Below are positions 1 to 62,885 of a stretch of DNA of 64,000 bases, piece after piece. Below the pieces are notes generated by a model. The model did no database searches. It was not told the DNA's origin and saw only the letters and a list, made by a program, of their open reading frames with translations. Source of the stretch: Vermamoeba vermiformis (Eukaryota); NCBI GenBank assembly GCA_045837725.1, contig JBEWZL010000076.1:1-64000 (forward strand), read 5' to 3'. The stretch's first letter is position 1, and each line of letters starts with the position of its first letter. Position numbers and translations under genes: made by a program.

Positions 1-9
1 TTGCGTTGT

Positions 10-2300
10 ACTTACCTTTTGCGATAGACGAATTATATTAACTCCAGACGGATCGAGTCTCAATCCGCGCCTATTCGTGCAATCAGCTCCGTGAGCAAAT
101 CTGAGTTATAGAATTGTTAATAATTCATATATATAACGCGTTATACTTACCTTTGGAGCACTCGATGCGCTTCATTAAAAGTTGAATCGCTGCTGGATCG
201 CGGATTCGTAGCCCTCAAAGGTTTCTTCAAGGGTCAATTAGACCGTATCTGTAATTATAACGCGTTAGTAATACTGTATTAATATCGATCTATAGTATTG
301 ATATGGCGAACTTACCCTTCTATATAAATTTTTTATCGCATGAAGATCGCGATCTAGATCCGTTCTGGGTTTTTCTTAAGACTTAAATAATCAATATTAA
401 AACATCACATATTTATTGAATAACTATAGAAAAGCACTTACATGTCAAGAGAACTTGTCCTGTCACGGATCGAGTGTTCGAATCCACGTATCCGGTCTGC
501 GTCCGCTCCTTTTGAGTAATAACCTGTAAATTTATGATTACTAAAATATATTAACGATAAAATAACCAGTTATTTAACTTTGGTTCAAGCGCTGTGTTGC
601 AACGACGCTGAATATCGTTGGGCGCGTGTATAATATACACAGTGAACTAAATACTATTAATAATTCGACCCTTGTGGTCGATCTGATGCGAATCTAAGTT
701 CGCATCACTTCAAATCAAAATAACTCGCGCTGAACGCCGTTGTGGCCGTGGCGCGTAACTATAGCTGTTAATAAGCGATGAACAATAAATATAACGACCC
801 TTGTGGTCGATCTGTCAAAGTTTTTACTAAAAATAACGGCTCCAGATCTTTGTGATTCCCACCCGTAATTAAATTAATTAGCATTTATTATTATGTACAC
901 AATTTTATCTTTTCGCTCGTGGATGCGTTCTAAATGCAATAACAGTCAGATCTGCAACTTGTCCACTAAGTCGGTCTCGTGCTATCAAACTATAATAAAA
1001 AAGATATCAATATTATATATGATAGAGTTGTACGCTTTGAACTTACTTTCGGCGCAATTGATGCGCAGCGTTAGCAGATCGAGTGCCACGAGCGAGCCGA
1101 TCTCATCCTTTTAAATCCTAAATAAGAATAATTATTAATATTGGCGTTTATTTTAAATTTTTAAGCATTGTACTTACTTTCGACACAATCGATGCGTCAC
1201 TGAAGTTTCTGAGAGATCGGGATGTCGCGACCTGATCTCTGGCCCCCGCTCTGTGTAATCTCTTTGATGTAAAATTAGTATAAATAAGTTAATATATAAA
1301 CATATAAGAGATATCACTTACCTTTAAGGCAATCGATGCCCTACATTGATATTTTAGCGGATCGAGACGCGTTGGATCCCGATCTCGTAAATGTTCAACA
1401 GAAGTCTCCTTCGCCATTTCTATGGAGATAATGCGTTAGTGATGGATGGTCTCTATATGTATATGTACTTACCGGTGCATCACAAGCAATGTAATGGATC
1501 TAATAACATTCGAGAGGATCGCGTTCGAGATCCGTCCCGTGTAACTTTTAACGCCTAAATAAATAGCTTTAGAATATTAAATAGCAATAATATAATAAAT
1601 TTAAACTACTTACGCTTGAAGAATTAGCGGGGACTGAGCGATCGACTTCGCGAACGATCCGCACATCACGTCTGCGCAGACGACACTGAAATAACCTATA
1701 AACTAACGATTATTATATTGTATTGATAATATGATAAGCAATGATTTAAACTTTGCACGAGCACGAAGCTCGATCTAATTTGAAAAAATTTAACTTGATT
1801 TTTAAATGATTAATCGACGCATTGGAATGATTATTTTATCACTATTGAATATATTTAAATACTTACTGAATTATTTCGAGGCTCTGGGCGGATTCAATCT
1901 CGCCATCAAGGTACCGACCCCATCGGCGAGCAATAGTCATCGTTCCTGCACCGGGGCACGAACGAAAGGCACCAGTGTATAATAAAACGACATTGGTGGT
2001 CAGGATCTCGCGCATCGAAAGTAACTGGAACTTTCGATCGCGTTAAAAATTTGTGATCTCTATCTAAATTAAAAATTACGCGTTAGCATATTATATGTAG
2101 TATATTTTTATCGATATTCATTAAAAATCCGGATAAAATCCGAGCACTTGGCTCGATCCGGATCAGTAGAAAATTTAAAAATTGATTTTACGACAAAATA
2201 ATATTGTCCATGGTGGAAGTATATATATAAAAATCTTACCTTGAATTATCTCGGTCTCTGCACCGAGATTCGCACAAGTCTTGATCTCGCGCATTGTCTC
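10..2300 (-). ncRNA. Putative multi-exon non-coding transcript built of repeated ~70-100-nt hairpin exons (continues off the left edge; may begin as far right as ~4100)
   Basis: Minus-strand GTAAG(T) donors at + positions 15, 150, 315, 441, 1046, 1177, 1321, 1472, 1613, 1866 and 2239. Most pair with branch-like TAAC/TAAT plus YAG acceptors, e.g. intron 150->101 GTAAGT...TATTAAC...TCAG and intron 315->249. Exons share GATC...GATC stems and (+)CAATCGATGC-like motifs. The exon joins I tested hit stops. Confidence 0.55.
601..815. repeat. Bipartite hairpin repeat block 1 (ACGACGCTG or ACTCGCGCTGAAC hairpin + A-rich spacer + CGACC-CTTGT-GGTCG-ATCTG), 2 units
   Basis: CGACCCTTGTGGTCGATCTG at ~666 and ~795; perfect hairpin TGATGCGAA-TCTAAG-TTCGCATCA at 684-707. 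Confidence 0.9.
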
Positions 2301-2307
2301 GCGCTGT

Positions 2308-2690
2308 AACGACGCTGATTGTCGTTTGGTGCGTGTGCACTAACAATAAATTAACAATCTAAGTAACCAGATCGACCCTTGTGGCCGATCTGTTGCGAAT
2401 CTTGGATTGATACTGTCAATCCTCGAAATAACTCGCGCTGAACGGCCGTCGTGGCCGTGGCGCGCAACTATATGCTGTTAATAAGCGATGAACAATAAAT
2501 ATAACGACCTTTGTGGTCGTTCTGTTGAATTACTGATGCGAAATAGCCCGTGCGCCATTTTCGCATCAGCTCCGAACCTCGAAAGAACTCGCGCTGAACG
2601 GCTCTGATGCCGTGGCGCGTTACTGTCATCTGTAAATGTGCAATATAATACTAAATATTAAATAAACCGACCCTTGTGGTCGATCTGTAT
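2308..2690. repeat. Bipartite hairpin repeat block 2, 3 units
   Basis: CGACC(C/T)TTGTGG(T/C)CG at ~2373, ~2505 and ~2668; ACTCGCGCTGAACGG...GTGGCGCG at ~2431 and ~2587. Confidence 0.9.
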
Positions 2691-2759
2691 CAGTTGTTAA
2701 AAATAAAGTCCAAAAACTGATGCGTGCGATTTTGACTTTCCCTAAATAAGACATTTTAC

Positions 2760-3734
2760 GCTAAAACTCCAGCGGAGCCTAAATTTTGGCCAATATAGCT
2801 CAAATCCATCATAATATGTACAATATAATTTATAATACACCATAATATCATAACAATAAGATATTAGTGGTATTTTATGAGGTGTTGATCTGCAGCAGTA
2901 GATCTGGTTTTATTATTACATTACAAGGGTTTACTATGAAGTCACCATCACGGTGAACACTTTCTCCATCACGGAGATCATACTGCCATCGCGGCAGGAT
3001 AACACCATCACAGTGTAGTCAAAGCCATCACGGCTGTAGGTGCACCGGGTGGTGGTGTCTTTTGCCATCACAGCAATGTTATCACCATCACGGTGAGGTT
3101 GTGGCCATCACGGCAATATATATGTTGAATGAGTTTGATGCCATCACGGCAAGTTAATCGCCATCACAACGAAGTTAACGCCATCACGGCAAATTGATCA
3201 GATATAGATCCGCTGCTATCATCAAAATAATGATTCTACAAGTTTTGTAATAACCTAATATCACTGTGTGCACGTGCTTACATCATCATCAATCGCTGAA
3301 ATTTCGGCAGACACGGATCGTGCACGATCTATTTGAAATAATTATTTTCACTTCTAAATATATTAATTTCAAGTAAATATATCATATATATATTTATATT
3401 AAATTATTTAATGTTTCAGGCGATTTTTCAAACAAGTCTAAGTCAAATCTAAATCCAGCCAAATATTCAGCTTTGTTATATTACCGAATTTACCTCTCTA
3501 ATTACTTGTACTAATATATATGTATATAAATCGATGTTTTTGCTGGGCTGATGATGATACTATGGTGTTCTTGTGCAGATCTTGTGCAATCTGACAGATT
3601 CGCCAAAAACATATCTTCTAGTCGCCGGAAAGTTGTATAAACAGTACCATATTATGGTACTATACTCTAATATAATATATACTACTATAATTCTATATTA
3701 TTGTGCCTAAAGTAGGCTCCGCTGGAGTTTTAGC
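2760..3734. mobile_element. 975-bp segment bounded by perfect 22-bp inverted repeats (MITE-like or long-range stem)
   Basis: GCTAAAACTCCAGCGGAGCCTA at 2760-2781 is the exact reverse complement of TAGGCTCCGCTGGAGTTTTAGC at 3713-3734. No ORF inside and no clear target-site duplication. Confidence 0.5.
2942..3190. repeat. Array of 11 short stem-loops with conserved ATCAC (minus strand GTGAT) pentaloop, ~20-bp period
   Basis: tcacc-ATCAC-ggtga, tctcc-ATCAC-ggaga, ctgcc-ATCGC-ggcag, acacc-ATCAC-agtgt, agcc-ATCAC-ggct, ttgcc-ATCAC-agcaa, tcacc-ATCAC-ggtga, gcc-ATCAC-ggc, tgcc-ATCAC-ggca, cgcc-ATCAC-aacg, gcc-ATCAC-ggc. Confidence 0.92.
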
Positions 3735-3747
3735 ATAATTGATCTTA

Positions 3748-4010
3748 AATAACTCGCGCTGAAACGACGTTGGCGTCGTGGCACGTCACTAACAGGTGCT
3801 AATAATCAATACTGAAGAATAATTCGACCCTTGTGGTCGATCTGATGGCTTACTGAATCTGTATACGAAATAACCCGGCCATTTTTGCATCAGCTCAGAG
3901 CTGAAATAACTCGCGCTGAAACGGCTGTGATGCCGCCGCGTGTTTCTGTCAGCGTAAATGAGCAATACAGTACCAAAAAAATAAATAAACCGACTTGCGG
4001 TCGATCTGTT
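3748..4010. repeat. Bipartite hairpin repeat block 3, 2 units
   Basis: AATAACTCGCGCTGAAACG at ~3748 and ~3905; CGACCCTTGTGGTCGATCTG at ~3825; variant CGACTTGCGGTCGATCTG at ~3991. Confidence 0.9.
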
Positions 4011-4299
4011 TATTTGAAATCGATAACCCTTGCTTGCTGCTGTCAGCCAAACTAATAAATAATTGAGTTGTTATGCAATAAACAAATAAAGAGCATTAAC
4101 ATTATAAATAATTGACGGTTGTGCTCGATCTGTCCGCGAGAGAAAACTACAAGTAACGGTCACTGCCTGATTTGGTAAAATCGACATTCGTCGACCGCAC
4201 GTGAGCATCGACACTCGTCGACTGGTACACGTGTCTGCCAAAAATTGCCGTTCTGTGTTGGGAAATAACCTGGCACAGCCACAGAAAAAGTGCGTGCAC

Positions 4300-6220
4300 G
4301 CACAAAACTCACAAACACAACACCGTAACAATACAACCACAACCACGAGCTGGCCAGTAAGAATAATTTGCTAGTTTATTTATTGCTGGCTTCGTCACGA
4401 CGTGCTTGGTATTGCGCGACCCTGCACTAGTGCTACTAATTATGCTCTGCCCTGCAAGTGCAATAATCATTCGTGGTAAGTAGGCTTGATAGTATTTAAT
4501 TTATAAAATAGATTATTTTACAGTTATCTATTTATTAATTTTCTTTTCAGGTAAAGCCGATCAACAACGCACCTGTTGTTTTACGCGAAGAAATTGCCAC
4601 CTTCGCTGAGAATGTTACTGGTAAAATCTAGAATGTAAGTAATGGGCTGTTTATCAACCTGCATTTTTAATTACATTAAAACTAATTTCAATCTCAGATA
4701 CGGCAGATTTTGACGAGACAACGGGTCTGTCTCCTGGCATCGGATTGCTGCGTCTTTGAGCAGTACAGAAGTAATGGGGGATGCGAACACCGGTAAAATA
4801 AGTGGTAAGTGATATTTAATACTAGTTTATTTTTAAAAATCAAATGCGCGGCATCTCACCTTTTTTGTTCTCGCAGCTCTCCTGGCTCGAACGCGTGTGC
4901 ACTATTTTTCAACAACGTTTCACAGCAAAGGCAGCCTTGCCAATGTTTGAGTAAGTACTCTCTGAATTTAAATCGAGTTAACTAATCCGATCTTCAGTTC
5001 TTCCAACAGCTGCGTGGCACACCGTCCAGTTATTGGACGGTCCCTTCAGTGCATGGCTCGCACGGTCCAAGCCTTGCTTGGCTCAAACCGTCCAAATTCT
5101 GGACGCTTTTTTTAGCGTGGCTCGCACCGTTCCCTCTGCTCTCAGTGTGCCACCGTCCAGTTATTGGACGGTGCCCTCCGCGCCGTGCCTCAGCTCGACA
5201 CCGTCCGGTTATTGGACAGTGCCCTCTGCGCCGTGCCTCAGCTCGACACCGTCCTGTTATTGGACGGTCCCAGTGCATGGCTTAAACCGTCCAAGACTTG
5301 GACGCTTTATCGGACGATCCCTTCAGTGCGTGGCTCGCACCGTCCAAATTCTGGACGCTTTCTCAGCGTGGCTCGCACTGTCCCCTCTGCCCTCAGTGTG
5401 CCACCGTCCAGTTGTTGGACGGTTCCCTCTGAACCATGCCTTAGCTCGACACCGTCCAGTTATTGGACGGTCCCCTCTGTGCCGCACTCTCACGTGACTC
5501 CGTCCAGTTATTGGACGGTCCCTTCAGTGCATGGCTCGCACGGTCCAAGTCTTGCTTGGCTCAAACCGTCCAAAGTCTGGATGCTTTTTTTAGCGTGGCT
5601 CGCATGCCTCACTGCCACCGTCCAGTTATTGGACGGTTCCCTCTGCAGCTGCCTTTTGTGTGACATTCCCTCCGTGCTGTCCCTTCAGCGTGCCACCGTC
5701 CAGTTATTGGACGGTTCCCTCGGTGCGTGGCTCAAACCGTCCAAATCTTGGACGCTTTTTCAGCAAATGGCTGACCGTCCAAGTCTTGGACGCTTCATTG
5801 GTGCGTTGTTGACACCGACCAGTTATTGGACGCTTAATTGGACAATCTCTTCAGTGCGTGGCTCGCACCATCCAGTTATTGGACGGCCACTTCAGTGCAT
5901 GGCTTGCACCATCCAGTTATTGGACGGTTCCCTCTGTGGCTGCCTTCTGTGTGACATCCCCTCCGTGCCGTCCCTTCAGCGTGCCACCATCCAGTTATTG
6001 GACGGTTCCCTCGGTGCTGTGCCTCAGCTCAGTGTGGCTCACACCGTCCAGAACCTGGACGCTTGGCTGGTGCTGCATGGCTTGGTGAGTAGATTGCACC
6101 ATCCAAGACTTGGATGCTTTGTTGGTGGCTTGCACTGTCCAGGACCTGTGCACCTTCTTGGCTGGAGCTCACACTTTGTATGCCAAGGTCCTGGACAGTC
6201 AATTGTAAAATAAAGTTTAG
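4300..6220 (+). ncRNA. Putative spliced, polyadenylated non-coding transcript whose last exon is the palindrome array
   Basis: Canonical introns 4476-4550, 4635-4697, 4805-4876 and 4951-4997 (GTAAGT...branch-like site...CAG), possibly also 4357-4458. AATAAA at 6209-6214 directly after the array. The spliced frames I tested contain stops. Confidence 0.5.
5021..6200. repeat. Array of ~23 palindromic units (ACCGTCCA-GTTAT-TGGACGGT and CCGTCCAA-N4-TGGACGC) with repetitive spacers
   Basis: About 13 GTTAT-loop copies (5021, ~5152, ~5200, ~5247, ~5403, ~5451, ~5500, ~5617, ~5695, ~5814, ~5867, ~5908, ~5985) interleaved with about 10 AA(ATT/GAC/GTC/ATC)-type copies. Confidence 0.95.
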
Positions 6221-6253
6221 TTTTTACAAACAGCTCCTTTATTGGGTTTGCAA

Positions 6254-6438
6254 GGGGGTGTACAGCATGCTGTACAGGGGTGCGATGGGTGTACAGCATG
6301 CCGTACGGGGGTGCGAGGGGGCGTACAGCGTGCCGTACGGGGGTGCGAAGGGGTGTTCAGCGTGCCGTACAGGGGCATCAAGGGGTGTACAGCATGCTGT
6401 ACGGGGGTGCGAGTGGGTGTACAGTGTGCTGTACGGGG
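6254..6438. repeat. G-rich ~31-bp tandem repeat x6 containing palindrome GTACAGCATGCTGTAC
   Basis: Unit GGGGTGTACAGCATGCTGTAC(A/G)GGGGTGCGA; runs of G3-G5 give G-quadruplex potential. Confidence 0.95.
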
Positions 6439-6584
6439 AAAAAATCCTAGCCCCAGCCCCAAATCCTATAAAATATGACATTAAAAAAACAGCTATAGAA
6501 ACTTTGTAGCTACTTTTTACAATATTTTATTTTTAACCCTCTCACCCCCAAACCCTAAAGCTATATTAATCATCGCATTCAATC

Positions 6585-7500
6585 TGATTCTCATCATGGA
6601 CACGACACCAACATTTACGCGTGCAAAAAGATCATGCATTTGAAGCTGATTCTCATTTAAACCATGACGCCAAGATTAGCACGTGCAACTGGAAGCATAA
6701 AGAATGCAGTTGTAGCTCTTCTCTCTATAACAACGACGCCAATTCAACGCGCGTGCAATTAGAACGCACTTTTGATATCAATTACACTATACCCACGACG
6801 CTTGTTTTAAGCACGCGCACTGAGGATGAAACATGCTCAATCATTATGTTTCAGTGTATTTAAAGCACCCGTGTACCAATGAACAGGCATTGATTACCTC
6901 AACACTCTATTTCATTATAAGCACGACGCTAGCATTAATACACACGTAAATCATACATTTCTATTATAACCACGACGCTAACATTTAGCGTACACGTGAA
7001 ACAGGGATACTCATCATGTTTCAACAGATTTAAAGCATTCGTGTACCATTGAACTGACACTGACACCATCAACTCTGATTCTCATTATTACCACGACGCC
7101 CATGTTTACGCGCGCGAATAACACTTGATTCTCTTATTAACCACGACGCTCGCTTTCGATAAGCGTCCGTGAAGCAGACATTATGCTTCTATTCATTTAA
7201 AGCACGCGTTACCAGTGAACTTGCATTGATATCTCAACAATGAAATCTCATCTTTGATTCTCATTATAACCATGACGCTCACATAGAGCGTACGCGTAGA
7301 AACAGGACATTCTTCATGTTTCGACGTGTTTAAAGCACATGTGCGAGTAACTAGCATGGATTACGATACCAATGATGAAGCAGGACACCCTTCATGCTTC
7401 TATTCAATTAAAGGATCCATGTACCAGTTAACCATCATTGATTCCATCTTCAAAATGAAATTTCATTTTCATTTCTCCTCTTTTCTTCTTTCATTCTATT
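6585..7500. repeat. Degenerate repeat family (TTCTCATTATAACCACGACGCT...ACGCGTG) with a higher-order unit (CATGTTTCA...TTTAAAGCA...GTACCA)
   Basis: ACGACGC/ATGACGC-like core at ~6601, 6663, 6732, 6794, 6922, 6971, 7092, 7142 and 7271, mostly after TATAAC-like sequence; TTTAAAGCA at ~6859, 7029, 7196 and 7329. Confidence 0.8.
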
Positions 7501-7504
7501 ATGC

Positions 7505-7735
7505 AACGACGCTGATTGTCGCAGGGCGCGTGTTTACTATCAATAATAACAATAACAATAATAATAACTCGACCCTTGTGGTCGATCTGATGCAAATCTA
7601 AGTTCACATCTAATTTTCAATTCCACAGCCAAAATAGCTCGTGCTGAACATCTTCTGTTGCGTGACGAGTTACTTGCATATTGTAACTAGAATAAATAAA
7701 TAAGAAAAAATAATTCCTCACTTTGTGGTTGAGTT
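7505..7735. repeat. Bipartite hairpin repeat block 4, 2 units (second degenerate)
   Basis: AACGACGCTGATTGTCG at 7505; CGACCCTTGTGGTCGATCTGATGCAAATCTAAGTTCACATC at 7570, nearly identical to 666-706; CTCACTTTGTGGTTGAG at ~7717. Confidence 0.85.
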
Positions 7736-8300
7736 TATTACATCATTTCTTTGCAAAAACAGATTTACTCCGATCTCCGCGAGAGACCGTTCGTTCTGTT
7801 TGATAAACCCTGTGCACGAGTGTTAACTGTCAAAATTAATTACACCACAAGGCGACTCGTGGTCAAAATCCCGCAAATCAACAGCAAAAAAAAGGTTATT
7901 CGTTAATGTCCTGCGGTGACTTTCAAAAATTTCAAATCAGATTTGGGCGGGAGGGTAAATTATCAGCAACGCGAGCAGCTACAGCAATGCCGTCTCGTGC
8001 GCTGCGACTAACATAATTACAGAGAAATTGTGGTAGCTACCTTTGCGCAAGATAAACGATTTAATTTTGATTTGGATCAGCTGAAGTAAAATAATTGGTG
8101 ACCATTGCCAGTGCAAACACGAGCACTGTTACATATGAAACTGTCTTTCGTGCTTGTTTGGTGCGTTTTGATGACAAAAATAACGCATGATTGTAACTAC
8201 GAGTCTCGCTCGTGTCGTCACTAGTTACGAGTTATGGCTCCAATAGATCACGCCTGCCCACTAAATTGTAAGTTATTTTGATTGTTTTTTGTTGTAAGTT

Positions 8301-8770
8301 CATGACCAGTGCGGTCACGAAGTTTTTCAAGTTTGAATTTTTTTACATCGTCTCCCTGTGGAGACGACCTCAAGGGACTTTAATTTTTCTTAGTTCGTGA
8401 CCAGTGCGGTCACGAAGTGGGACTTAGTTTTTTTGTTACATCGGCCTTGCAGGACTTTAATTTTTTTTAACATCGTCTCCCTGTGGAGACGACCTCTGTA
8501 GGACTTAGTTTTTTTAGACATCGTCTCCTCGTGGAGACGACCTCTATCGGACTTAGTTTTTTCAGACATCATCTCCCCGTGGAGACGACCTCCAATGACG
8601 TGACATCAATTTTCTTAGCTCGTGACCACTGTGGTCACGAAGTTTTAAACTTTGGTTTTTTTACATCGTCTCCCTGTGGAGACAACCTTGAAAGACTTAA
8701 ATTTACATCATTTCCTGCTAGAGACAACTGTAAAGGACTTTAATTTCAGTTGTGACCATTGTGGTCATAG
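8301..8770. repeat. Mixed hairpin array: CGTCTCC-CTGT-GGAGACG (x5) and GTGACC-A(G/C/T)TG(C/T)-GGTCAC (x4) separated by T-tracts
   Basis: CGTCTCC-type at 8349, 8474, 8522, ~8570 and 8667; GTGACC-type at ~8302, 8397, 8622 and 8752. Confidence 0.9.
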
Positions 8771-8894
8771 TTTTGCCCTTACCAGTACAGTTGTTGTTTT
8801 ATTCTAACTTGTTATATTGTAAAATGAATAAACTCTTTCAACATTTAATCTCTCTGGTGTGTAATTACTCTTGTCAGCCCTCAACTCTAATTAA

Positions 8895-9185
8895 CTCTTG
8901 GCGACTCTAGTTAGTGCTCGGCTAGTCTTGTTAGTGCTCGGTGACTCTCATTAGTGCTTGGCGACTCTCGCTAGTGCTCGGCAACTCTCGTTAGCGCTCG
9001 GCGACTCCCATTAGCGCTTGGCGACTCCCATTAGTGTGCAGCGACTCTCGTTAGCACTTGGTGACTTGTTAGCGCTCAGCAACTCTCGCTACTCAGCGAC
9101 TCCTGTTAGCTCGCGGTGACTCTCGTTAGCACTCGGCGACTCTCGTTAGTGCTCAGCAACTCTCGTTAGCACTCTACAACTCTTG
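8895..9185. repeat. 20-bp tandem minisatellite, consensus GGCGACTCTCGTTAG(C/T)GCTC, ~14 copies
   Basis: Directly visible 20-nt periodicity. Confidence 0.95.
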
Positions 9186-10033
9186 CTCACACTTGTGCAA
9201 TTGCTCAATGTTGAACTCTTGGTTGAAAAACTGCCAGAAAAGTTGACTTTACGAAACTTTTTGGATAATTTTTAGGGCTAGCCCTGTTTGGCCAAGCCCT
9301 GTAGTATATATGAATATATTAAACCAAATCTTTTGTCAGGATTAGAAATCCTCCCAAAAAATCTCAAGGGAGGATTTTACTGGTAGGCATTTTTCTCAGT
9401 TCAGTAGTATCAAGTATTAAAATTATTTATATACTAATGACCAGCAATGTTTATTCTATAATATCAATAGTTTTGACACTAATTGGCAAGTGTTTTAATT
9501 TTTATCCAACTGCCAAATATGGCAATGCAGGATCAAAGAATAAAAACCTTTAAAGTTAGGAATTCTTTAATTTATTGTATTCTGTTGAGAGTAGGCCTCA
9601 CTACCATTTGTATCATATTGTTATTCATTTCCTGAGATCCTAAACACAAAAATTTTCACCTTATTTAGTTACCTATGCATCAGATATCTATAAACAGACT
9701 GCTTTATGCATTGGCAATGTGATTGATTATTGGCTTTTGTTGGAGTACATTCTTAGAACTTTCTCATCCCAAATCTGCACCCAAACCTCTCAAAAAGTTG
9801 GTAACATATCAATACTTATCCTTTTGCTGAACATTTAGGAGAGTCTTAAACCTTTTTGTACCAAATCCAAAGCCTTAATCACTGGTTAAAACTCTAATGT
9901 ATCAAACAGATAGCTTTCAATGAAAGCAAGGTGATTATTAAACTCTGCTGGAAGTGGAAATCTTGCAGGCCAATGCAACACTGACAGACAACCAATCAAG
10001 GATCTGATGTAACAAGCAAATACAGACTTTTAT

Positions 10034-11928
10034 CTAAACAGTCTCCTCAAGTTTGTTCAAAAGTGGTTGATCACTGCTGTTGTGCTCACTGTCATCTTGA
10101 ACGTGCTGTCTTGCAGTTGGCTCAGGTAATGTTCCTACTGTCACTCGTTGCATGTGTGTTGTGCATGCTACTCTCTGCACGGAACCAACCCTGTCAAAGT
10201 GTCATTAGCTTGTCAATAGGTTATGCAACAAGCTTATTACTTACAATTCAAAGAGTGTATATCCGAACACGAGGGCCATGACCATTATGAGAAACTGTAG
10301 CGTGGTTTCCCTAGGGAGGCTGTCAGTTAGTACGAACAGAAGCTGTTACAAGGGCACATACATTCGGTGAGTGAATCCCAATAACATAACGATGGTGCCA
10401 ATAGCAATTCTTAAGGGTAGTCGAACTTTCGTTGGTATGACAAAATTGTTGTAATTTTGCGACAAGAAGCCCATGAGACCCATGCTGATCATCACCACAC
10501 CCACACCACCGGAAATCATCCACTGCGCAATGTACGGATGTTCATCATGCTTTTCATTGATCGTGTGCTACGCGAAAATTAGTAACTAGAATTACAGCAC
10601 GACAACGATACTTGCCTCAAGGAGCAACAGTCCAGACGACGCAAAACAGATGCCCAACATTAGTGGCAAGTGACAAAACATCCACAAAATGTAGCCGTAG
10701 CGACTCCTGCGGATAGCGTGCAATGCCTTTGGTGCACCTTCGATGTCAAAGTAAGTCCACTTCAATGCGAAGGCGATGAACAACGGGATGAAAGCACCAC
10801 TAAGAGATTGAACTCAGTCAGTCTAACACACTACACAATTGTTATGATACGCACAGATATCCCGAAAGATCGTGATTCTCCGAGGCGGCTAACAGCGCTA
10901 CAACCATCATGCCCAACAGTAACATAATGAACACCCCCACGCGTTCAATGTAGTGTTCGATGTTGAGCGGTGCTGCATATGGCACGTTGACCGAAAGGAA
11001 AATGATCAACTCTTCTGCGATCAGACTGACAGCCCAACACACGTAGCCGTACTCGGGGAATATCAGTGAACAGCACCAAGGCACGATGAGCAGAGTGTTC
11101 AGTAATGCCATGTACTGACCGACAATGTTAACTGGACTGATCTGCTTCATTATTCATACGTACCAAAGCATTTTGCCATCGCTTGCCCTCGCAATAGGCA
11201 GTGTACATATACATTATTATGAGCAACAATTTCGCTGCGAGATACGACAAAGTGAATCCGACAGAAGGTGATTCTTGTGCGTCGTGTAAATTGATTCCCA
11301 TTCCCACCCAAACATTAGAATTAACATTATGCAATAGAGTAAAACCTTCACTTCGTGCTACTTACAACGGCTGTCATTTGTAACAGATAGTAAATTTTGT
11401 GGATCTATTTCGGGAGTTAGAATCGCGACGGTTCTGTGTTGAAACTTACTATATCATCGGTGTCGTATCGAGTGCTGTACATTGTAGTTGCAGCCCAAAC
11501 ACGCCACACAGCGCCGAAAAGTAGAATGAAAATGTGGATGTGGTCCGAATTCTCGCTCAGAAAATGAACTTAGAATGAAAATTAATTCTTTGGACGTAAA
11601 TATGTGATGGCTAATAGCTAAGTTACCTACCCAAATGTTCGATAAGCACAACGTAAATCAGATCGTAAAATAATTCTGTCCAGGATATTTTTCGCGTGTC
11701 TCTTTCTCGTATTAACACCCTCTTGTTAATTTCTGAATCAAATACGAAATATTGCCGCAGTCGAGGAAACTCTAAGCAAAATGAAATTAGTAAAATTAAA
11801 ATCAACTTTTGCCGGCGGTTGAACATCAATTTAATTATATCGGCCATAAAATAATTCATACCGAGGTTATATTAATTTTACTAAATACTTACTAACGAAT
11901 CCATAGAAACATGACCGTGAACTGTCAT
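10034..11928 (-). CDS. Low-temperature-requirement protein A (LtrA)-family membrane protein, multi-exon (5' end approximate)
   Basis: Exon peptides RKISWTELFYDLIYV, HYIERVGVFIMLLLG and WMFCHLPLMLGI match LtrA motifs; multiple TM segments; stop TAG at 10034-10036 after splicing. Confidence 0.75.
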
Positions 11929-12153
11929 CAACGCTGTATTTAATTAAATGGTGCGCTCCAAAATGATGCTCCGTTATGTGAGCCTATTAATATTATCTAG
12001 GTGTCATTAAGCAACTTGGAAAAATAATAGAGGGTTAAAGTCGCTTTCAGACCGTATGCGAATTGACAATCGGGCAGCACAATTTCTACTTACATCTGGA
12101 TTATGATGACTCATGCTATTAACAATTGAATCATATTATTTTATAACCGATTT

Positions 12154-59979: not shown

Positions 59980-62885
59980 TTAGTGTTGGGGAGTGGCACC
60001 CATACCAGCACCGCCGAGCAAACCATTGGCAGTGTTGAACAAGTTGATGGGTGAGTTGCCGTCGGTGATCATGTAGCCTTGCAAGCCCAAAGATTGGAGC
60101 ATCTTGACTTGCATTTCAGGGCCGGCACGGGCGATGGCAGAAATGGTGTTCTTGCCAATAGCACCGATCAAAGACTTGAACTTGGCAGACTCGATGGTAG
60201 AGAGATCCTTGGCCTTGGAAATCTCGAGCTCGTTGATGGCCTTTTGGTGTTCAATCTCGGCTTCTTGTTCCTTAGTGCTGATTTCAAGATCGGCTTCGGA
60301 CTTGATCTTGACAGCTTCGGCGTGCAAGCGAGCTTGGAGCACAGCAGCCTCACCTTCAATTTGTTGGGCTTCAGCGCGAGCCTTGGCTTCAGCGGTGGCT
60401 TGACCAGTGGACTCGACGGCAGCTGATTGAGCTTGCAATTGCAAGAGGTCCTTACGGGCCTTTTCGGCTTCAGCCTCGTCAGTGATCTTTTGACGTTCCA
60501 AACGACCACGAGCCTCTTGTTCACGTCGCTCTGCCTCGTGTCTGGCAGCGGCTTCTTGAGACTTGGTGGTAATCTCAATAGCCAATTGGACGGAGATTTG
60601 CAAGGCGTCACGAGTGCGTTGATCGACAGGCTCGACGGATTGAATATCGATGTTGTCGATGACCAAGTTGTTGGCAGGGAAGTGGAAACGGTTCTTGATC
60701 TTTCCGTTATCATCAGTGCCAAAGACGGCAGCGCGGATGATCTTAGCAGAGTTCTTGTGGAAGTTATCGAAGGACTCTTGGGCGACAGCACCTCTGACGC
60801 GAGAGGCGATAGCCTTGCAAGCATCACCAACAAAGTCGGGGACTTGGAACAACTTGACGGCCTCTTCTTGGTCGGTCTTGTTGGGGACTTCGAAGTGCCA
60901 GTTGTAGCTCAACTTGAGGGACAAACGAGCGTGATCGGCAGTTTCGACGATGACGAAGTCAGTCATGAAGTCAGGACCCAATTGGAGAGCAATGGACTTG
61001 ATGACGTGAGGGCGCTTGGGCTTGTCACCAGACAAGGACAAGATGGTGAAGTGCTCATCAGGACCCAACATAACCAATTCGGGACCATAGACAACACGTG
61101 ATTGCTTGAGCTTGTAGTCGTAGATTTGAACGGCGGTGTTGTGAGGTGCACGGAAGCTAACGACGCGAGTCTTATCGCGGCCAGAGGGGCCAGAAGGCTT
61201 GTCACCTTCACGGACACCAGAGGCACCGCGGATGATCAAGTCCTCAACGACAGAGGTGAGTTCCTTCTCCCAAAGTTCTTCTTCGGGCAACAACATGTAG
61301 CTGCGACCAGTAACCATGCGAACACGACCGGTCTTGATGTCTCTGACGTAGATACCTTCGTTTTCGTCGAGAGGGATTGAGCGTCTCTTCTCAACAACCT
61401 CAACTTCAACTGAAGGAACGTAGTCGCAAGGACCGTAGATCATCCAGCGGTCACCAGGCTTTCTAAGAACGGCTTCCTTTTCAGTGAGGTCCTTGAAGGC
61501 TTCACGAGCGCGGAGCAAGAGAGCCTCTTCGGCGTCCAAGACGTGAATGGTTTGAATGCCAGCTTCCAAACGCTCTCCGGGTTGCAAGAAGAAAGAGATG
61601 GGACCCTTTCGCAAAACTCTTTTACCCATTTGAGGCTTGCCGTCTTGGCCAACAGGATCCAAAACAACGCAGTATTGTCTGTTGGTCAAAGTGGTGATAG
61701 TGACTTCTCCGATGAGCTTCTCGTTAACGTCGGGGATGTGTGTTTCAGTGTGAGCCAAAGTAACCAACCATTCCTCTCCGGCCTTGCGGGTAGCACCGAA
61801 GGCATCGACGAAAGTGCGGAGAGCTTGGAGGTGAAGAGCCTTCTTGTCGGTCAAGACGTAAGCAGAGACGGTTTCAACGACTTCTTCTTCGACTTGAGGA
61901 ATGAAGGCACCAGGAGTCTTAACCAAGTATTCATCACCAGCCTTTCTTGTGACTTTAGCGGTGGGATCGGGGAACTCCTTCTTGGCACGAAGTCTGAGAG
62001 CCTGGTTGGGCTTAATGACGATGGCGCGAACGATTTCGACGACTTGGACTTCAACTCTAGGAGTGTAGGTACCTAAATTTAAAAAAAGACTTAGATATTT
62101 TGTGGGATTTGGATTTTCAAACGGTTTCCAAGAAAAGTTGCAGAATTGAATTAAAGCCATAATATGATAAGAAATAATACTTACCAGGTCCTTGGAACAA
62201 CCATTCATCTCCAGCAACTCTATCGACCTTGCCGTCCTTAAAATCTCGGATGGCTCTCAATTTAAGAGCTGTGTTGGGAGCAACAACTTGCAAGGGAGAA
62301 ACTTTGCCAAACAAGGTTTCACCAGGGAAGAGAGGGAAAGGCTCTTGTTCGAAGCGAATTTCCTCATCTCCGTGGCGAATCTTGACTTGGCCAACTGAAT
62401 CTGTAACTTGACGACCATCCTTATCTCTGTTTAATATATTTGAATTAATTAAGCTGTCCAAGAAGATATTTAATTGACGGTGATGGTCTTTGATTAACTT
62501 ATTTCGAGGAAGTTGAATTCAAGAAATTGATTTAAGGTCGTTGGAAAACGCTTATCAAAAGACCAACGCATTGTAGAAATCAGCACGATTTTACTATGAT
62601 AAAATTTACTAAGCGTAAAACGTTACCTGAGCACGGGGTTTTGAATAATGCAGTAGTGTCTGGGAGGGATGATAATCATAGCTTCAGGACCACCAACAAC
62701 CTTCTCGTGATCAGCACGAGTGAACGTGCGAGGACCAACAACGACTCTATTAAAACGAGTTAGCTATTTTCTGTAATTATCAAAATAAAAACCGTATCTA
62801 GTCTTTACCTAGTAACGTTGGAGTTGTTATCTAAAACGTGAATGTAGTGGAAGGGCTTGATTCTAATAACAGAGTCACCGTCCAT
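59980..62885 (-). CDS. MVP: Major vault protein, 4 exons
   Basis: [83 protein letters not shown]. Confidence 0.99.

Follow-up and report, generated by a model that had tools for sequence, protein, structure and literature searches.

Several described systems offer points of comparison for a tandem array of short, hairpin-bearing exons. Spliced-leader RNA genes carry an Sm site and repeat one identical leader, whose donor has no downstream acceptor; Dscam-type clusters of mutually exclusive exons rely on pairing between docking and selector RNA sequences, their exons being coding and matched in length and phase; and the repeats of Xist lie inside large exons. At the Prader-Willi locus, SNORD116/IPW-A is reported to be a set of tandem non-coding host-gene exons placed around intronic small nucleolar RNAs (snoRNAs) (PMC4742849, PMC4171697). 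Chicken LL2R is reported to be a tandem-repeat architectural RNA that is poorly spliced and whose predicted donors exceed its acceptors more than threefold (bioRxiv 10.64898/2026.03.19.712899). Here we analyse a locus at the left end of a 64,000-nucleotide stretch of Vermamoeba vermiformis DNA (assembly GCA_045837725.1, contig JBEWZL010000076.1, positions 1 to 64,000; hereafter the window), where the minus strand of positions 1-2339 carries a run of short exons with GATC-core hairpins, separated by AT-rich introns. A small, keyword-bound literature search turned up no account of exons arrayed in this manner. Our leading and most economical interpretation, held at about even odds, is that 1-2339 encodes a spliced non-coding transcript, built of duplicated exon-intron modules and running off the window's left edge. 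A first-pass annotation had proposed three readings of the array: a modular long non-coding RNA (lncRNA) grown by exon-plus-intron duplication, a set of alternative 5' leader or spliced-leader-like donor exons, or a decayed repeat-exon gene. The first of these is now the best supported, in that duplication of units, lack of coding and retention of splice signals all stand, while the lncRNA status itself is putative.

The array is most readily recognized by its donors. On the minus strand, GTAAG occurs at 2239, 1866, 1613, 1472, 1321, 1177, 1046, 441, 315, 150 and 15 (n = 11), matching in count and coordinates the eleven donors first reported, and the plus strand has no GTAAG in positions 1-3500. 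Ten of these donors are GTAAGT, the one at 2239 being GTAAGA. The hexamer GTAAGT is abundant in the window as a whole (77 copies vs 28.5 +- 6.0 in shuffled sequences), yet the 67 copies outside the array correspond to about 0.53 per kb per strand, or about 1.2 expected in 2.3 kb, against the 10 seen. Successive donors are separated by 373, 253, 141, 151, 144, 131, 605, 126, 165 and 135 nt, and the proposed spacing of mostly ~130-165 bp is borne out by 7 of the 10 intervals, which lie between 126 and 165. Exon lengths run from 66 to 100 nt, with exon B at 197 nt, which agrees with the short exons of 71-98 nt described earlier. Array introns comprise eight of 50-67 nt, two of 171 and 176 nt and one of 523 nt, and the two compartments differ sharply in GC content (exons 0.35-0.54, introns 0.15-0.36).

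On the acceptor side, each of the ten complete introns closes with YAG, and acceptors keep pace with donors (10 complete introns for 11 donors). When a branch box was defined as a CTAAC-like element 10-35 nt before the YAG acceptor, introns A, D and I (3/10) were seen to have a strict CTAAC, placed 16-19 nt ahead of the acceptor, with CTAAT in E and TTAAC in J. For comparison, we assembled from 10-64 kb a rough set of 83 candidate introns that restore open reading frames (ORFs), a set that includes false positives and several candidates per acceptor. In this set, coding-gene introns that begin with GTAAGT are mostly 44-68 nt long and have CTAAC-type boxes, and GTAAGT is the commonest donor, accounting for 17 of about 47 consensus-like sites as compared with 10 of 11 in the array. 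In donor consensus, branch box plus YAG, and length, the array introns resemble the U2-type introns of this genome. The earlier statement that they are AT-rich like those of the protein genes is thus upheld for donor, length and branch-box type, with the qualification that the array introns are still more AT-rich (the coding-gene introns have a mean GC of 0.38). The features of the unit, in the presumed order of transcription, are as follows.

2240-2339, minus strand: exon A, 5' end uncertain, donor GTAAGA at 2239; the exon opens with the final module of copy 2298-2530 of the interspersed hairpin repeat.
2064-2239, minus strand: intron A, 176 nt, GC 0.27, hairpin GATCGAGC...GCTCGGAT; GCTAACGCG precedes TAG by 19 nt.
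1867-2063, minus strand: exon B, 197 nt, three GATC, all frames closed from the natural acceptor.
1696-1866, minus strand: intron B, 171 nt, GC 0.24.
1614-1695, minus strand: exon C, 82 nt, paralogue of H, hairpin 1664-1636.
1555-1613, minus strand: intron C, 59 nt, GC 0.15.
1473-1554, minus strand: exon D, 82 nt, paralogue of I, hairpin 1541-1509.
1420-1472, minus strand: intron D, 53 nt, branch box ACTAACGC.
1322-1419, minus strand: exon E, 98 nt, paralogue of J, GATC hairpin 1390-1356, and a second small stem around GCATCGATTG at 1339-1330, directly before the donor.
1262-1321, minus strand: intron E, 60 nt.
1178-1261, minus strand: exon F, 84 nt, hairpin 1243-1209, GCATCGATTG at 1195-1186.
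1118-1177, minus strand: intron F, 60 nt.
1047-1117, minus strand: exon G, 71 nt, hairpin 1107-1073, GCATCAATTG at 1064-1055, all frames closed from the natural acceptor.
524-1046, minus strand: long intron G-H, 523 nt, containing the decayed unit G2 and, in the same orientation, the repeat copy 598-836.
About 989-903, minus strand: unit G2, decayed, with ATAAAA at the donor position.
442-523, minus strand: exon H, 82 nt, hairpin 497-464.
382-441, minus strand: intron H, 60 nt.
316-381, minus strand: exon I, 66 nt, GC 0.35, with the weakest hairpin, 365-341.
249-315, minus strand: intron I, 67 nt, branch box ACTAACGCG.
151-248, minus strand: exon J, 98 nt, GAATC/GATTC-core hairpin 211-181, GCATCGAGTG at 168-159.
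101-150, minus strand: intron J, 50 nt.
16-100, minus strand: exon K, 85 nt, hairpin 72-46.
1-15, minus strand: first bases of a further intron, GTAAGT at 15-10, with which the unit leaves the window.

The internal resemblance among these modules records how the array was assembled. Self-comparison by BLAST aligns 107-582 with 1279-1755 (60% over 491 nt, E = 4e-21) and 969-1239 with 1095-1386 (63% over 300 nt), matches which indicate that the block C-D-E was duplicated to give H-I-J and that an E-type unit was tandemly copied (E, F, G and G2). Judged by these alignments, the array is a product of the duplication of whole exon-intron units. Paralogues are now about 58-73% identical and exons compared pairwise 52-67%. 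Despite this divergence, the three donor hexamers covered by the block alignment are identical at 18 of 18 positions, for which simple arithmetic gives 0.6^18, or ~1e-4. Across the 12 units GTAAGT is intact in 10; were each hexamer retained with a chance of ~0.35, at least 10 intact copies out of 12 would have a probability of ~1e-3 by the same kind of arithmetic. The identity of the donor hexamers argues for selection on splicing, and in these comparisons the 5' splice site is the one feature clearly conserved beyond drift.

The exons show no sign of encoding protein. In four of the 11 (B, G, I and J), every frame is interrupted by a stop when read from the natural acceptor, and the open frames of the remaining exons clash in phase at C-D, D-E and H-I. 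As first claimed, no continuous reading frame passes through the natural acceptors, and the two joins that had been tested by hand do hit stops, C-D lacking a compatible phase and J being closed in three frames. The array region has no ORF longer than 78 aa on either strand. Codon usage was scored by log-likelihood, with 15 long ORFs of the window as the training set. The best frames of 12 exons had a mean of -0.02 per codon, compared with +0.20 +- 0.15 for held-out ORF fragments and +0.08 for their antisense, and 9 of the 12 exons ranked no higher than the 8th percentile of the genuine coding fragments. Among 10 open frames searched against Pfam, none reached the cut-off, the top match being Syntaxin-5_N at 13.5 bits vs a cut-off of 16.6. 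The unspliced frame of exon E (42 aa) found no word-sharing protein among those of 23-74 aa, a blank that weighs little because the window's genome is seemingly absent from the protein collection, in which the nearest recorded proteins to the window's major vault protein (MVP) are 97% identical. Frames, codon usage and protein searches all give no support for coding.

Two sets of weak matches were set aside in the course of these searches. The 58-aa frame of exon B drew four hits among 1.84 billion representatives, which were rejected as a repeat artefact: the top one, the hit inspected closely, is a tandem-repeat protein of 1106 aa in which a 15-residue stretch is matched about 15 times at 23 bits each. 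In Rfam, the window has no match at gathering score, and five sub-threshold matches in 1-3200 at E <= 10 were taken as chance.

The idea that short repeat exons make up a coding gene, translated with the help of exon skipping, alternative acceptors or recoding, could draw on the chain E-F-G'-H, the longest available, which is open for ~108 codons provided that splicing uses 1107, a poor alternative acceptor, and on exons E, F and K, each of which is open in the frame that ends at its donor. Set against this are the lack of any chain via the natural acceptors, the non-coding codon usage, the blanks for Pfam and for the exon E frame, and the nature of the exon B hits as summed weak matches to repetitive proteins, no stretch of which exceeds 23 bits. 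We regard such a gene as highly improbable.

The exons have a structural motif in common. Each of the nine from C to K forms a short, local stem-loop with a GATC core, 7-11 bp in length and with a dG of -4.2 to -12.9 kcal/mol, the core being GAATC/GATTC in J and the arms degenerate in H and K. Both GATC...GATC stems named in the first-pass annotation are present, GAGATCAGG...CCCGATCTC in exon F and GATCGGGA...TCTCGATC in exon E, and so is the motif it placed just before the donor: GCATCGATTG, which forms the second small stem, is exact in E and F and has one-base variants in G (GCATCAATTG) and J (GCATCGAGTG). The tetramer GATC occurs 23 times in the 1133 nt of exons (20.3/kb vs 5.2/kb window-wide, a 3.9-fold enrichment), and for CTCGATCYG, a 3' arm, the window has 7 copies where 0.73 would be expected, four of them within exons K, H, G and E. 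When the strongest 34-nt hairpin of every exon is taken, the mean is -10.9 kcal/mol, as compared with -7.6 +- 2.9 kcal/mol for 84-nt coding fragments (n = 144; Mann-Whitney p = 2.4e-4). When exons C-K are joined in silico (748 nt), the predicted folding energy is -243.5 kcal/mol vs -218.7 +- 7.3 in 40 shuffles (z = -3.4), and 116 of the 247 predicted pairs lie within one exon and 131 between exons; since the exons share palindromic arms, pairing between them is expected and is not itself proof of function. Base pairs next to the core also show compensatory differences from exon to exon, G-C in D, H and K vs A-T in F and G, with a C-G vs G-C exchange one step further out, and the GAATC/GATTC core of J is a further case; these changes were read by eye from the folds, as MAFFT did not bring the nine hairpins into register.

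Such palindromes might operate as DNA rather than RNA. On this account, GATC- and CpG-rich palindromes recurring every ~140 nt would serve protein binding, methylation or nucleosome phasing, and the splice-like motifs would be incidental. The enrichment of GATC in the exon segments is in keeping with it, as are a CpG observed/expected ratio of 1.75 in 1-2000 (1.42 in 2001-4000 and 1.11 window-wide) and the presence of 10 YYGTGATGG sites 600-850 nt upstream. It is at odds with the confinement of all 11 donors to one strand, and the 130-nt peak in GC autocorrelation (0.20) falls within the range of peaks in control segments (0.0-0.27). Additionally, when the two strands are folded as RNA, the minus strand gives the more stable hairpin in 8 of 9 cases (sum -82.4 vs -72.9 kcal/mol, with 8 vs 4 G-U pairs), a weak argument for RNA structure on that strand rather than a palindrome acting at the DNA level alone. 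A DNA-level element is, in our estimation, very unlikely.

The hairpin design extends beyond the array to an interspersed repeat of ~250 nt, copies of which lie at 598-836, 2298-2706, 3747-4015 and 7502-7732, in one orientation throughout. The first of these sits inside the long intron G-H and the second abuts exon A. The repeat is built of modules of ~140 nt, each with a CAGATCGACC-ACAA-GGGTCG hairpin, an AT-rich spacer and then more hairpins; its spacers end in TTACAG, TAACAG or TTAG, and it has no consensus donor. Compared by eye, the arms of the exon G hairpin, AGATCGG...TCGATCT, equal those of the repeat's first hairpin. By BLAST, array and repeat overlap at exon A only, the other units giving no match, though the design and the AGATCGG...TCGATCT arms are common to both by eye. 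The exon array and the interspersed repeat look like relatives, either of which may have given rise to the other. Beyond the window, a two-unit motif pattern had no match in metagenome_contigs or genome_contigs, and a 21-mer of the interspersed repeat had none in metagenome_contigs. The same 21-mer matched exactly a viral contig (L001, 10439-10459, IMG/VR, GC 0.58) that has no other similarity to the window, probably a chance match.

Three raw-read RNA runs deposited under the same species label (X1-X3) were mapped to 1-12000, with 93% likeness required. Each run placed no more than 24-47 reads there, almost all over just part of their length, and no read joined two exons; a control gene at 10.3-11.9 kb was likewise nearly uncovered, with reads on a single 39-nt exon, and the loose end of these reads mismatches the window (11450-11479) at about every third base, as judged by eye. 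Because the control gene is uncovered and its flanks have diverged, the runs must come from a diverged relative and are uninformative on the junctions of the array. The control gene encodes an LtrA-like membrane protein; its 39-nt exon lies at 11366-11404 on the minus strand, the junction 11404/11450 is common to the relative's RNA, and no AG acceptor was found for the intron starting at 11365.

Two segments of the locus nevertheless attracted reads at >=93% likeness, with flanks that are unrelated or diverged: 1628-1660, the hairpin of exon C, with 10-20 reads per run whose flanks are consistent but different, and 601-636, a hairpin segment, with 3-4 reads per run. In the minus sense, the relative's RNA has GTAAC 14 nt past the exon C-like hairpin, which is the hairpin-donor offset of the window (by eye). 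A hairpin unit of the exon C kind, either an orthologue or a dispersed paralogue, is thus transcribed in a relative and is apparently unspliced at GTAAC.

Several observations weigh against a functional spliced RNA at 1-2339. First, donors aside, exons are no better conserved than introns between paralogues: in aligned columns of the duplicated blocks identity is 65% for exons (151/233) and 73% for introns (162/223), and when gaps are counted it is 152/262 for exons and 91/144 (0.63) for intron interiors. Second, also with gaps counted, hairpin segments are 0.61 identical vs 0.57 for the rest of the exons, and whole-exon folding is unexceptional, with a mean z of about -0.9 and z >= 0 in 5 of 12 exons. 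Third, unit G2 has lost its donor, and the relative's RNA, read by eye, seems to continue past GTAAC without an AT-rich intron or an exon junction. Fourth, the array adjoins and resembles a hairpin repeat without donors, in a hairpin-rich stretch of 10 kb (1-10000 holds 78 of the window's 138 perfect-hairpin hits of >=7 bp); given this contiguity, the exon hairpins may have been inherited rather than selected. Finally, a coding part of the transcript could lie outside the window.

An alternative explanation is an inert or decaying repeat, that is, a diverged member of the hairpin-repeat family or a dead repeat-exon gene, with relic introns and no functional RNA now. Equal divergence of exons and introns, the dead donor of G2, the common design of hairpin and AT-rich, YAG-ending spacer in a repeat lacking consensus donors, and the crowding of perfect hairpins into the first 10 kb are all compatible with it. 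The decayed repeat-exon gene of the first-pass annotation accordingly keeps its place among the explanations. Neutral decay, however, fails to explain why GTAAGT is intact in 10 of 12 units at ~60-70% paralogue identity (chance ~1e-3), and strict CTAAC boxes at the correct distance from the acceptor and a sharp GC contrast between exon and intron are still there. On balance we hold decay to be an improbable explanation, albeit one to be taken seriously.

The same pattern of constraint bears on another explanation, that the exons are a non-coding leader, a multi-exon 5' untranslated region perhaps with alternative exon use, belonging to a gene beyond the left edge. The unit does leave the window after exon K, with its donor at 15; constraint on splice signals but not on exon sequence is expected if only removal of the AT-rich spacers matters; and in exon E an ATG in AAATGG context opens a short frame. 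A leader of at least 11 non-coding exons would be extreme, however, no coding signal appears anywhere in 2.3 kb, and the ATG of exon E is absent from its paralogue J. We therefore think a leader of this kind unlikely.

The reading of the first-pass annotation in which the exons are alternative 5' leaders or spliced-leader-like donor exons finds no support: each exon is preceded by an AT-rich tract that closes in a YAG acceptor, with CTAAC in three cases, and the exons are ~58-67% alike rather than identical leaders. Moreover, with only 50-67 nt between exons there is no room for separate promoters, contrary to use as alternative leaders. An array of spliced-leader-like donor exons serving trans-splicing would account for many strong donors after short exons; it is hard to reconcile with pairwise exon identities of 52-67% in place of one leader, with the complete short intron and acceptor that follow each exon, and with the lack of a match to any spliced-leader RNA family in Rfam, and we rate it as exceedingly improbable.

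Returning to a spliced non-coding transcript, we propose the following model. The unit would be spliced at >=10 short U2-type introns, would probably reach upstream into the hairpin repeat at 2298-2720, and by the model certainly goes on beyond the window's left edge, the predicted product being an RNA of ~1 kb or more without protein-coding capacity. Growth would have proceeded by tandem duplication of an exon-plus-intron module of ~140 nt, including one three-module block (C-D-E to H-I-J), and the design of this module, in which a hairpin with a GATC core is succeeded by a YAG-terminated, AT-rich spacer, would be the one common to the neighbouring repeat. In the spliced RNA every exon is predicted to display a short GATC-core stem-loop, to which E-type exons would add a 5-bp stem just before the junction, and the shared palindromic arms could also pair between exons. 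From the sequence we infer present-day transcription and splicing of the locus, whose spliced RNA would act as a multivalent hairpin scaffold; the scaffold function is something we can only infer, because the exon bodies, hairpins included, are no more conserved than the introns. A bolder version, which we put forward as a rather doubtful possibility, is that this is an undescribed modular lncRNA of a protist in which selection keeps about a dozen minimal introns that join 80-nt, one-hairpin exons into a string, whose arms could pair within an exon or between exons, so that the RNA might be a multivalent binding platform or might direct the choice of its own exons by RNA-RNA pairing.

If expressed and spliced, the array would cleanly illustrate how purifying selection can act on splicing as such, in an RNA without any coding role. 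It would also place the structured element in the exons, the reverse of small-RNA host genes, and would show a hairpin repeat family turned into an exon-intron array, or a change in the opposite direction, with a bearing on the origin of introns and of non-coding genes in intron-rich protists. If it is not expressed, it would merely be a diverged repeat with relic splice signals.

The wider window is that of a gene-bearing region with a repeat-rich left end. Its long open frames include MVP (59980-62256, minus strand), a PAS/HisKA/HATPase histidine kinase (17.5-20.2 kb, plus strand) and an EI24-like protein, and its protein genes have many short introns inside. The content is eukaryotic, and the pairing of a vault protein with histidine kinases hints at a protist and not at an animal or plant. 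No clear protein gene was seen between 2.3 and 10 kb, and the window has no tRNAs. Upstream of the exon array, 2945-3189 on the minus strand holds all 10 of the window's YYGTGATGG matches (1.6 expected window-wide), spaced ~20 or 40 nt apart and also seen as a 20-nt tandem repeat, which may be an array of binding sites or a minisatellite. These sites and an AT-rich stretch are bracketed by an inverted pair of ~100 nt (2747-2848 and 3649-3747, 72% identity) that may represent a foldback-type element. On the plus strand, opposite to the array, 4380-5000 has four short introns of 47-76 nt (GC 0.20-0.34) with GTAAGT donors at 4476, 4635, 4805 and 4951, separating exons of 73-107 nt that have stops in every frame once joined; this cluster may be a second, divergently oriented non-coding spliced unit, and the YYGTGATGG sites sit between the two divergent units. 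The cluster runs into hairpin tandem repeats at 5000-6200, of which those at 5151-5927 (plus strand) are 41-48 nt long with a perfect 9-bp hairpin in the unit (CACCGTCCA GTTAT TGGACGGTG); several frames are open throughout these repeats, and a 365-aa frame at 5116-6213 has no Pfam match.

Among described systems, the closest kind is SNORD116/IPW-A, which likewise is reported to be a long non-coding unit of tandemly duplicated exon-plus-intron modules. There a functional small RNA resides in each intron, whereas here the structured element is in the exon and the array introns are AT-rich, mostly of only 50-67 nt, and without a match to an Rfam family. LL2R is a looser analogue, similar in being a repeat-derived non-coding RNA with dense 5' splice sites and a candidate platform for splicing factors, and different in its reported excess of donors, as compared with 11 donors for 10 complete introns here. 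Other systems resemble the array in single respects. Spliced-leader arrays also consist of tandem short exons that each end at a strong donor, but the exons described here have diverged from one another and are linked by complete introns. Dscam-type clusters are similarly made of tandemly duplicated exons, and complementary arms could pair between units in the array as well, but its exons are 66-197 nt long, are mixed in phase and contain stops. Finally, as in Xist, structured modules are repeated within what is here a putative non-coding RNA, with the distinction that in this array each module is an exon of its own.

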